From positions 1 to 58,282 of the forward strand of contig CAXBEY010000003.1 in the NCBI GenBank assembly GCA_963974885.1: a stretch of 58,282 nt of DNA, written 5' to 3'. Made by a program: the position numbers and the translations under genes. A model generated the notes under the pieces. That model was not told the DNA's origin and searched no databases. It saw only the letters and a list, made by a program, of their open reading frames with translations. This stretch comes from an uncultured Alphaproteobacteria bacterium. Lineage in GTDB: Bacteria; Pseudomonadota; Alphaproteobacteria; Caedimonadales; UBA9215. Positions 26,714 through 28,144 of the stretch are shown here, one piece after another. Within the stretch, counting starts at the first letter, position 1; each line of letters starts with the position of its first letter.

Positions 26714-28144
26714 CTAAAAGGGGTTCTTAAATTCCCCACGCTCACCCAGCTCTTCTTCGATGCGAAGGAGCTGGTTATATTTGCAAATACGGTCCGTTCG
26801 GGACAAAGAGCCTGTCTTAATTTGTCCAGCTCGGGTCGCAACGGCAAGGTCAGCTATTGTTGTATCCTCTGTTTCCCCCGAGCGATGAGAGACAACGCAG
26901 GTATATCCATGATCATGGGCCATTTTCATGGTCTCAAGGGTCTCGGAAAGGGTTCCAATTTGGTTAAGTTTTATAAGAATGCTGTTCGCAAGATTCTGAT
27001 CAAATCCCATTTGAAGGCGTTTGGGATTGGTCACGTACAAATCATCACCCACAATCTGGCAACGCTCCCCAAGGGTTTTGGTTAATAAGGCCCATCCCTC
27101 AAAATCATCTTCGGCCATGCCATCTTCAAGGGACAAAATGGGGTAAGAGTCTAAAAGATCCTCATAGTAAGTCACCAATTCAGCAGAAGTGAGACACTTT
27201 TTTTCCCCCGCCAAACTATAAATACCAGAGGCTTCATGATAAAGCTCATTGGCCGCCACATCCAAAGCGAGACCAAAGTCCTTCCCTGGGCAGTAGCCCG
27301 CTTGCTCACCCGCTTGAAGCAAGCAATCAAGCACATCTTTTGAGGAGGATAGGTGAGGGGCAAACCCGCCTTCATCTCCAACACAAGTGCTTAAGCCCTT
27401 GGCTGATAAAATAGATTTCAGAGCTTGAAAAATCTCGGCTCCCATGCGAAGGGCCTGTGAGAAACTCTTGGCTCCCACGGGCACAATCATAAATTCTTGA
27501 ATATCGATAGGCGCATCAGAGTGGGCACCACCATTGATAAAATTCATCATGGGCATGGGGAGTAAGGTTGCTTTATCGCCCCCTAAATAGGCATAAAGAG
27601 GCTGATGTCTTGAGGCGGCAGCCGCTTTTGCAACGGCAAGGCTTACGCCTAGCAAAGCATTCGCTCCAAGGTGAGATTTATTGTCACTTCCATCGAGCTC
27701 AATGAGGGTGCGATCAAGGGCTTTTTGATCAAAGGGATCCGTGCCTATAGGAAGCTCTGCAAAAGGACTAAACGAAGTGATTTTGGATGAGATAAAAGTG
27801 AAGAGAGATCGTGGAAACGTAAGCATACCTTTAGTATGTGCGTCCCGCGAAAGTCGAGCCTTTGCTTTTTTATCGCCAAAAGAGGCTTTTGCAGAGCTTC
27901 CTATAAGAGCCGGTGTTAGAATAGCTTTCACAGCCTCAACGGCCTTTAAAACACCCTTCCCGTTATAACGTGCCTTATCTCCATCGCGTTTTTCAACGGC
28001 CTCATGTTTTCCTGTTGACGCTCCTGAGGGCACAATGGCCCGACCAAAAGCACCATCTGACAAGCGCACATCAACTTCAACGGTGGGATTCCCCCGTGAG
28101 TCTAAAACTTCGCGGGCCGTTATGTTTTCAATACAGATTGTCAT
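26714..28144 (-). CDS. eno: Enolase carrying a 52-aa in-frame palindromic-element insertion
   Basis: [45 protein letters not shown]; removing the insert gives 424 aa. Confidence 0.97.
27746..27905. mobile_element. Palindromic miniature element (ERIC/RPE-like), family A, intragenic copy
   Basis: Perfect 20-bp terminal inverted repeat TATAGGAAGCTCTGCAAAAG; TATA at both ends; homologous copy at 41991-42152. Confidence 0.92.

Follow-up and report, generated by a model that had tools for sequence, protein, structure and literature searches.

An in-frame palindromic element resembling a miniature inverted-repeat transposable element in the enolase gene of an uncultured Holosporales bacterium

Enolase gene, inserted element, and empty allele

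The stretch of DNA analyzed here (the window, 58,282 nt) is contig C3 of the draft genome G000 (contig CAXBEY010000003.1, assembly GCA_963974885.1), which comprises 1.6 Mb in 124 contigs with a G+C content of 42.8%. The bacterium belongs to an uncultured genus (g1) of Holosporales known as metagenome-assembled genomes (MAGs); these are host-associated Alphaproteobacteria outside the genus Rickettsia. The window carries an enolase gene whose open reading frame (ORF) runs through a palindromic element of 160 bp resembling a MITE (miniature inverted-repeat transposable element). The features at the locus are as follows.

26714..28144, minus strand: enolase gene carrying the insertion, 476 amino acids (424 without the insert), identified by its ORF, Pfam, and a solved relative
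27746..27905, no strand assigned: MITE-like palindromic element, 160 bp, with a net gain of 156 bp (52 codons)
27746..27765, plus strand: left terminal inverted repeat TATAGGAAGCTCTGCAAAAG, 20 nt
27886..27905, plus strand: right terminal inverted repeat, the reverse complement of the left arm, 20 nt
27744..27749, plus strand: direct repeat CCTATA, left copy, flanking the insertion
27900..27905, plus strand: direct repeat CCTATA, right copy, flanking the insertion
27824..27838, no strand assigned: central small hairpin (CATAC...GTATG), with A-T as its second pair in this copy, where most others have G-C

The extra residues of the enolase are 83-134 (52 amino acids). Pfam Enolase_N was matched in two stretches, the first of which ends at profile position 82 of 131, and Enolase_C covers residues 194-473. 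The closest solved relative is the enolase of B. subtilis (4a3r), to which residues 6-83 and 133-472 were aligned, with none between. With the insert removed, the protein has the length of its closest database relatives. The gene is the sole enolase found in G000, with no second one among the 23 matches to an enolase query.

The element has TATA at both ends, its inverted repeats start with TATAG, and the two 20-nt arms are 100% complementary with no mismatches. An earlier note, made from the sequence alone, had described a 160-bp element with a perfect 20-bp terminal inverted repeat and TATA at both ends, and this description was borne out at 27746-27905. Folded alone as RNA, the enolase copy reached -50.2 kcal/mol (z score of -6.1), and folded alone as DNA, it reached -35.9 kcal/mol (z score of -8.4); in neither case did any of 200 shuffled sequences fold as well. 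A scan of the interior for promoters and terminators found nothing. The 160 bp contain no transposase gene, the 54-amino acid translation of the element matched no Pfam family, and the element matched no Rfam family, intron or other, at the gathering threshold. At the same threshold, the window as a whole contained only the small signal recognition particle RNA and three tRNAs (6976-7071, 7174-7246, 9918-9989, and 15501-15573), all of which are ordinary.

The site is empty in relatives. An enolase was found in 26 of 30 relatives, and the insert is absent from all 26, in which the N- and C-terminal pieces of the match are adjacent in the DNA. In the other four, no enolase was found: the matches in G003 were copies of the element only, and three genomes had no match at all. 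An alignment of eight relatives showed a clean 52-column gap at the place of the insert in every one of them; three further loci, missed by the ORF filter, were left out of it. At the joint, the closest congener reads ATT TTA GGC GCC GAC, and the window reads CTT ATA GG[A AGC ... CCT ATA GG]C ACG GAT. When enolase residues 40-180 were used as a query and 8000 candidates were scored, the best identity was 49%, and none of the 120 candidates listed had an insert-bearing length.

Two runs of public sequence data bear on the same site; among the indexed runs, these two DNA runs, each with a small share, contained the locus, and no RNA run did. In run X1, a biofilm metagenome, a 500-nt contig aligned with 27482-27743 and 27900-28134 of the window, skipping exactly 156 nt. 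It differs from the window at 22 positions in 497 nt (~95.6% identity) and is thus a natural empty allele. The earlier note had stated that removal of 156 bp restores a normal 424-amino acid enolase, and the gap in this contig has that length. Comparison of the two alleles places the target duplication at 2-6 nt, including TA, with the X1 joint fitting 4 letters on either side; the exact length is ambiguous because the ends of the element are themselves palindromic. Run X2 yielded a 348-nt contig in which this enolase flank is attached to the right arm at an identical base, with 18 differences in 248 nt. The X2 contig lies on window positions 27886-28133 and comes from a relative, being 92.7% identical over 248 nt. 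To judge from these comparisons of sequence, the insertion in the enolase is recent.

Repeat family and its peptide frame

A family profile was built from 15 full copies and searched with nhmmer (E-values up to 1e-3). It gave 45 matches on 33 contigs of G000, 30 of which cover at least 136 of the 160 model positions; one of these runs off a contig end and was dropped, leaving 29 near-full copies. The enolase copy is unique in sequence in G000, its best match in that genome being 92% identical. Fully complementary arms occur in only two of the 29 near-full copies, including the enolase copy, which suggests that the enolase insertion is young. The window holds a second copy, which the earlier note had correctly reported as a colinear intergenic one.

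41991..42152, no strand assigned: intergenic member of this family, 162 bp in length and 88% identical to the enolase copy, between divergent ORFs; peptide frame broken by stops

The hairpin is under constraint across copies. In 22 aligned copies, the named structure comprises 29 pairs, namely the arm stem (20 pairs) and two inner helices. The cells of the alignment were paired in 91.4% of cases, compared with at most 54.3% when the partners were slid by 1-3 columns. Changes on both sides of a pair were found at 14 of the 29 pairs (mean of 7.5 after shuffling; none of 500 shuffles reached 14), and 13 of them lie within the arm stem. At pair 71-83 of the central hairpin, 18 copies have GC and four have AU. 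The counts of covariation are inflated by the kinship of the copies, yet single copies carry their own matched arm variants.

BLAST detected the element in four of 23 genomes of the order, all belonging to g1: G000 (37 matches) and its congeners G003 (28), G002 (4), and G001 (2). It was absent from the congener G004 (89% complete) and from 18 genomes of ten other genera of the order. A scan for the exact core pattern over 185,579 species genomes (one each), which may leave out records of the genome of the window itself, found 12 loci in two MAGs, 11 in a Holosporales MAG and one in an alphaproteobacterial MAG. Among 400 sampled genomes of the class, with two candidates scored per genome, only three had matches, and these were marginal (23-44 nt). 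As far as these sequence searches reach, the family is confined to one uncultured Holosporales genus. The expectation in the earlier note of a palindromic family outside Rickettsia was thereby confirmed.

Several smaller forms and positional tendencies were also seen in G000. Outside the full copies, there are 24 arm-like sites (up to three mismatches). Mini-elements consisting of two 20-nt arms and a loop of 2-45 nt are located at C55 7066-7108, C50 7030-7073, C1 4478-4540, and C6 31780-31864, and by their sequence look like internal-deletion derivatives of the 160-bp element. In the window, a solo arm (two mismatches) lies at 15667-15686 on the minus strand, ~90 nt downstream of tRNA-Glu (15501-15576), without a recognizable element body. 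Copies tend to abut gene ends: the one at C4 26947-27106 starts right after the stop codon of aconitase. Another copy (C5 30894-31074) lies 43 nt from the phosphoglycerate kinase gene. The solo arms on C19 and C35 were considered as ends of a parent transposon and rejected; they have ~225 nt in common, but no transposase follows.

In five of the 45 matches, a stop-free frame through the element continues into a stop-to-stop frame of at least 280 amino acids, and in each of the five the element is read on one and the same strand and in one phase. True in-frame insertions number three of 45. In addition to the enolase, they affect two further conserved genes. The copy in a LysE-type translocator lies in the middle of the protein, and its site is empty in G001-G004. 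The copy in a group-1 glycosyltransferase lies ten codons before the stop, with empty sites in G003 and G001. In all three comparisons of filled and empty sites, ATAG or TATAG is present on both sides, and the net gain equals the length of the element minus 4. A copy linked to an MscS gene was rejected as an in-frame insertion: it lies in the 5' leader, relatives match only from residues 73-83 on, and two of three have an upstream stop. A partial copy before a pilin-like gene, with which it shares an open frame, is probably in a leader too. Computational excision, with offsets of up to 6 nt, was too permissive as a means of finding gene-disrupting copies; its best case, on C4, turned out to be the element lying between aconitase and the gene that follows. 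One G003 copy is located in the ligA leader.

Diverged in-frame copies of the element peptide were seen in two hypothetical proteins, both of which are probably secreted by prediction: one of 238 amino acids in G003 (C56; L040 577-1293, minus strand) and one of 207 amino acids (P0125). On the basis of their sequences, they may be older insertions that have been retained.

The frame that reads ATA GGA AGC (Ile-Gly-Ser) is stop-free in 11 of the 29 near-full copies, and the other five frames are stop-free in 0-7. The net gain is a multiple of three in 17 of the 29; the canonical copy adds 156 nt. Among the 10 stop-free copies of 160 nt, the codon differences comprise 56 synonymous and 650 non-synonymous ones, and pairwise differences average 8.76, 7.69, and 3.27 at the first, second, and third codon positions, respectively. 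The third positions are therefore the least variable in the peptide frame, which is the opposite of coding selection; we report this without an explanation. The peptide matched three of 1.84 billion representative proteins (60, 87, and 207 amino acids). The two shorter matches are short ORFs, and the 207-amino acid match has no Pfam family. No insertion in a known conserved protein is among them, although this blank is weak, as members of large clusters are hidden behind their representatives. Among longer proteins, the peptide has two matches, both from this genome. Because the stop-free copies show no coding constraint, we conclude from the sequence comparison that the peptide is a by-product and not a selected product and that the open frame allows insertions to survive within genes. 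Strong covariation of the arms, in the absence of coding constraint, indicates that the hairpin, rather than the peptide, is the selected feature. Of the view in the earlier note that these are peptide-donating elements, the part on insertion stands, since three conserved genes carry in-frame copies; the notion of peptide donation as a selected property is not supported.

Probable translation and tolerance of the insert

We propose that the element is translated through and tolerated within the enolase, a reading that we consider probable on the basis of the sequence comparisons and the structural model. The element would be a non-autonomous MITE with a long hairpin, presumably moved by a DDE transposase in trans. 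One copy recently entered an ATA-GG site within the loop that separates the first two helices of the enolase N-terminal domain. Its orientation and phase, those of the ATA GGA AGC frame, are the only ones in which the young subfamily is free of stop codons, and for this reason ribosomes would read straight through it. The product would be an enolase with an extra basic loop of 52 residues, probably disordered. In other phases, an insertion would cut an essential protein short and disappear, and the in-frame copies would be the survivors. The sequences themselves show the repeat family, its ends, the empty sites, the open frame, and the conservation of the enolase gene; we infer the type of transposase, the translation of the insert, and the retained activity of the enzyme.

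The mobilizing enzyme is, as our guess, of the IS630/Tc1-mariner type because the duplication contains TA and an IS630-family insertion sequence (IS) with TATAG ends is present in the genome. This IS, the only one of its family found in the genome, is 910 bp long (G000 C67 5146-6055; L043 1052-1961) and has 24-nt inverted ends that begin with TATAG. Its HTH_Tnp_IS630 and DDE_3 domains lie in two overlapping frames, which suggests that the transposase is frameshifted.

The enolase gene itself appears to be functional. All invariant columns of a 33-enolase alignment are kept in the 476-amino acid protein, and the catalytic columns are intact. The mean identity to five outgroup enolases is 62.3% for the protein with the insert, compared with 60.5, 62.3, and 57.4% for insert-free congeners; by this sequence measure, the rate is not accelerated. 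Among the 22 differences that separate the gene from the X1 allele, 16 were listed by position, and 12 of these 16 are synonymous; the four replacements are D/E, E/D, I/V, and K/M. Phosphoglycerate kinase, glyceraldehyde-3-phosphate dehydrogenase, and two phosphoenolpyruvate-utilizing enzymes are present in the genome with open frames. An AlphaFold2 model based on the 33-sequence alignment had a mean predicted local distance difference test score (pLDDT) of 86 and a predicted template modeling score of 0.84, and it superimposed on 4a3r with a template modeling score of 0.96 and a root-mean-square deviation of 1.4 Å. The pLDDT falls below 50 at residues 84-130 only, where there is no secondary structure, and this segment is flanked by helices 66-81 and 140-151. 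In the model, the enolase fold is thus kept and the insert forms a disordered loop. The conservation and the model both fit a tolerated loop, and the enolase with its 52-residue loop is most likely still active.

Several points weigh against this reading. A deep enolase alignment would make AlphaFold2 return the enolase fold regardless of the insert. The constraint seen in the enolase flanks may largely predate the insertion, as the perfect arms suggest a young event. The genome encodes RNase III, of which a perfect 20-bp stem in the mRNA is a plausible substrate, and therefore expression of the enolase may be reduced through cleavage of the stem. At the enolase site, X2 reads arm-CT-arm, with only 18 letters on the left side, which makes it weak; if real, this form would be an arm-only derivative produced by deletion, with a net length indivisible by three, and would mean a broken enolase in the relative. 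As to mobility, the ends of the C67 IS share only TATAG with the arms of the MITE, and in the G000 draft no autonomous element with matching ends was found and no pair of arms encloses a transposase. The parent IS may be unassembled in the draft.

Some of these points would also suit a young pseudogene or hypomorph, in which the enolase is crippled by misfolding, loss of the dimer, or cleavage of the mRNA, and the frame is open by chance with too little time for decay. Such a state would agree with the arms, perfect in two of 29 copies, with a closest empty allele that is ~95.6% identical, with RNase III, and with the X2 contig, should it represent a derivative from a relative in which the frame is broken at this site. 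Moreover, disorder is predicted for the insert, which is strongly basic (pI of 10.6) within an acidic protein (pI of 5.0). On the other hand, this is the only enolase in a genome whose relatives carry the gene in 26 of 30 cases, and the neighboring enzymes of the pathway are intact. The absence of rate acceleration, the predominance of synonymous differences (12 of the 16 listed), and the intact frames of two other conserved genes with the same kind of insert also argue against decay. We regard a crippled enolase as unlikely, although it deserves consideration. The basic character of the loop and the use of one peptide frame in three proteins could alternatively point to an exapted module, a loop selected for a new property of the enolase such as the binding of RNA, a surface, or a partner. 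This is very unlikely, given a peptide with no coding constraint across copies, no Pfam family, and only three matches in 1.84 billion representatives, none of them an insertion in a known conserved protein; the insert is also absent from the enolases of all relatives.

Translated and tolerated DNA must further be set against the possibility that the insert never reaches the protein. The earlier note had allowed for removal or bypass at the RNA level: the hairpin would be cut from the mRNA and the ends rejoined, or the ribosome would hop from AUA to AUA, and either would give the ancestral 424-amino acid protein. The strong stem (-50.2 kcal/mol, z score of -6.1) would bring the two ends together, and identical AUA-GG words lie at both junctions. 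Nevertheless, an element of 160 nt falls far short of the size of a group I or II intron, and no Rfam family, intron or other, was matched. The bypass in T4 gene 60 has a stop codon after the take-off codon and a gap of 50 nt; here, matching AUA codons are present, but the stop after the would-be take-off codon is absent and the gap is 156 nt. The palindromic elements of Rickettsia are reportedly retained in mRNA, and the open frame through the element makes ordinary translation the default. Complete removal or skipping is thus extremely unlikely, and this part of the earlier note was not upheld. A partial hop or excision across the hairpin, yielding both the 424- and the 476-amino acid enolase from one gene, is scarcely credible either; if true, such a dual output would explain how these elements enter essential genes free of cost. 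An assembly artefact, in which a copy of the repeat was wrongly threaded into the enolase contig of the MAG, might be suspected in a draft of 124 contigs with several copies of the element at contig ends (C65, C78, C5, C104, and C17). It is exceedingly improbable because the junctions show the ends of the family and the flanking direct repeat, the frame is kept, the copy is unique in sequence (92% identity to its best match in the genome), and a contig of the independent run X2 shows the right arm meeting this enolase flank at an identical position.

Comparison with known palindromic elements

The element resembles MITEs in its small size without a transposase, its terminal inverted repeats, its many dispersed copies, and the target-site duplication at filled and empty sites; a parent IS with the same ends is the one usual character that was not found. 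In-frame protein-coding palindromes are best known from Rickettsia, where they are termed Rickettsia palindromic elements (RPEs), and the title of the original study reportedly calls them a unique feature of that genus. The present family shares with RPEs the palindromic repeats (~100-150 bp in RPEs), the setting in a host-associated alphaproteobacterium with a reduced genome, and the minority of copies whose in-frame position within genes for conserved proteins lengthens the products by a peptide. It differs in its host order, Holosporales, in a copy number that is about ten times lower, and in its clear 20-nt terminal inverted repeats and flanking direct repeat. No sequence relation was found, as the 18 other genomes of the order lacked the element and the 400 genomes of the class had only three marginal matches, in a sample whose Rickettsia membership is uncertain and with no RPE sequence compared. 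RPE copies within ORFs number 85 of 728 in R. felis; for R. bellii, the count is 53 of 526 (PMC1166351, PMC1458961). The fraction inside ORFs is similar, with three of 45 copies confirmed in frame here. By its sequence and by analogy, we regard the element as a new MITE family that would work like RPEs and is not shown by sequence to be one of them.

Two further systems resemble the element at its ends. In having a direct repeat with TA at the insertion, it is similar to IS630/Tc1-mariner elements, and the 910-bp IS630-family IS in the genome has TATAG-initial ends. It differs from them in that its arms match that IS in TATAG only, the duplication is not fixed at 2 nt, and the draft contains no autonomous partner that could be found. 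The Correia/NEMIS elements of Neisseria are 100-155 bp long, have inverted repeats starting from TATAG, duplicate TA, give hairpin transcripts that are cut by RNase III, and are mostly intergenic. The present element likewise starts with TATAG, over which first five bases only the two were compared, has a TA-containing duplication, and occurs in a genome encoding RNase III; the hosts are of different phylum-level lineages.

Coxiella QMITE1/2, ERIC, pneumococcal BOX, and the MITEs of Anabaena are likewise small and non-autonomous, have inverted repeats, and contain incidental open frames able to fuse with host genes (PMC10969869, PMC5896051). A 2024 review covers in-frame fusions of ERIC, BOX, Coxiella QMITE1, and Anabaena elements and calls RPEs the extreme case (PMC10969869). 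The novelty is thus lower than the earlier note had assumed, since in-frame MITE insertions were already described for several bacteria. A search of the Holosporales literature, including a 2025 review of Holosporales, gave no report of such elements; subscription journals were mostly outside this search, as were supplements.

What deserves note is the insertion in the middle of a gene for a core glycolytic enzyme, the natural filled and empty alleles, and the covariation of the arms without coding constraint. The two alleles, ~4% apart in public data, offer a natural comparison of how much inserted sequence a conserved enzyme tolerates, which also bears on whether these peptides supply raw material for new segments of proteins or are only tolerated junk. 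The affected Coxiella genes of known function all have the element at their 3' end (PMC5896051), whereas two of the three in-frame copies here lie in mid-gene. An element family with no sequence relation to RPEs found in the genomes searched would carry out RPE-like insertion in a different order of host-associated Alphaproteobacteria, within the enolase.

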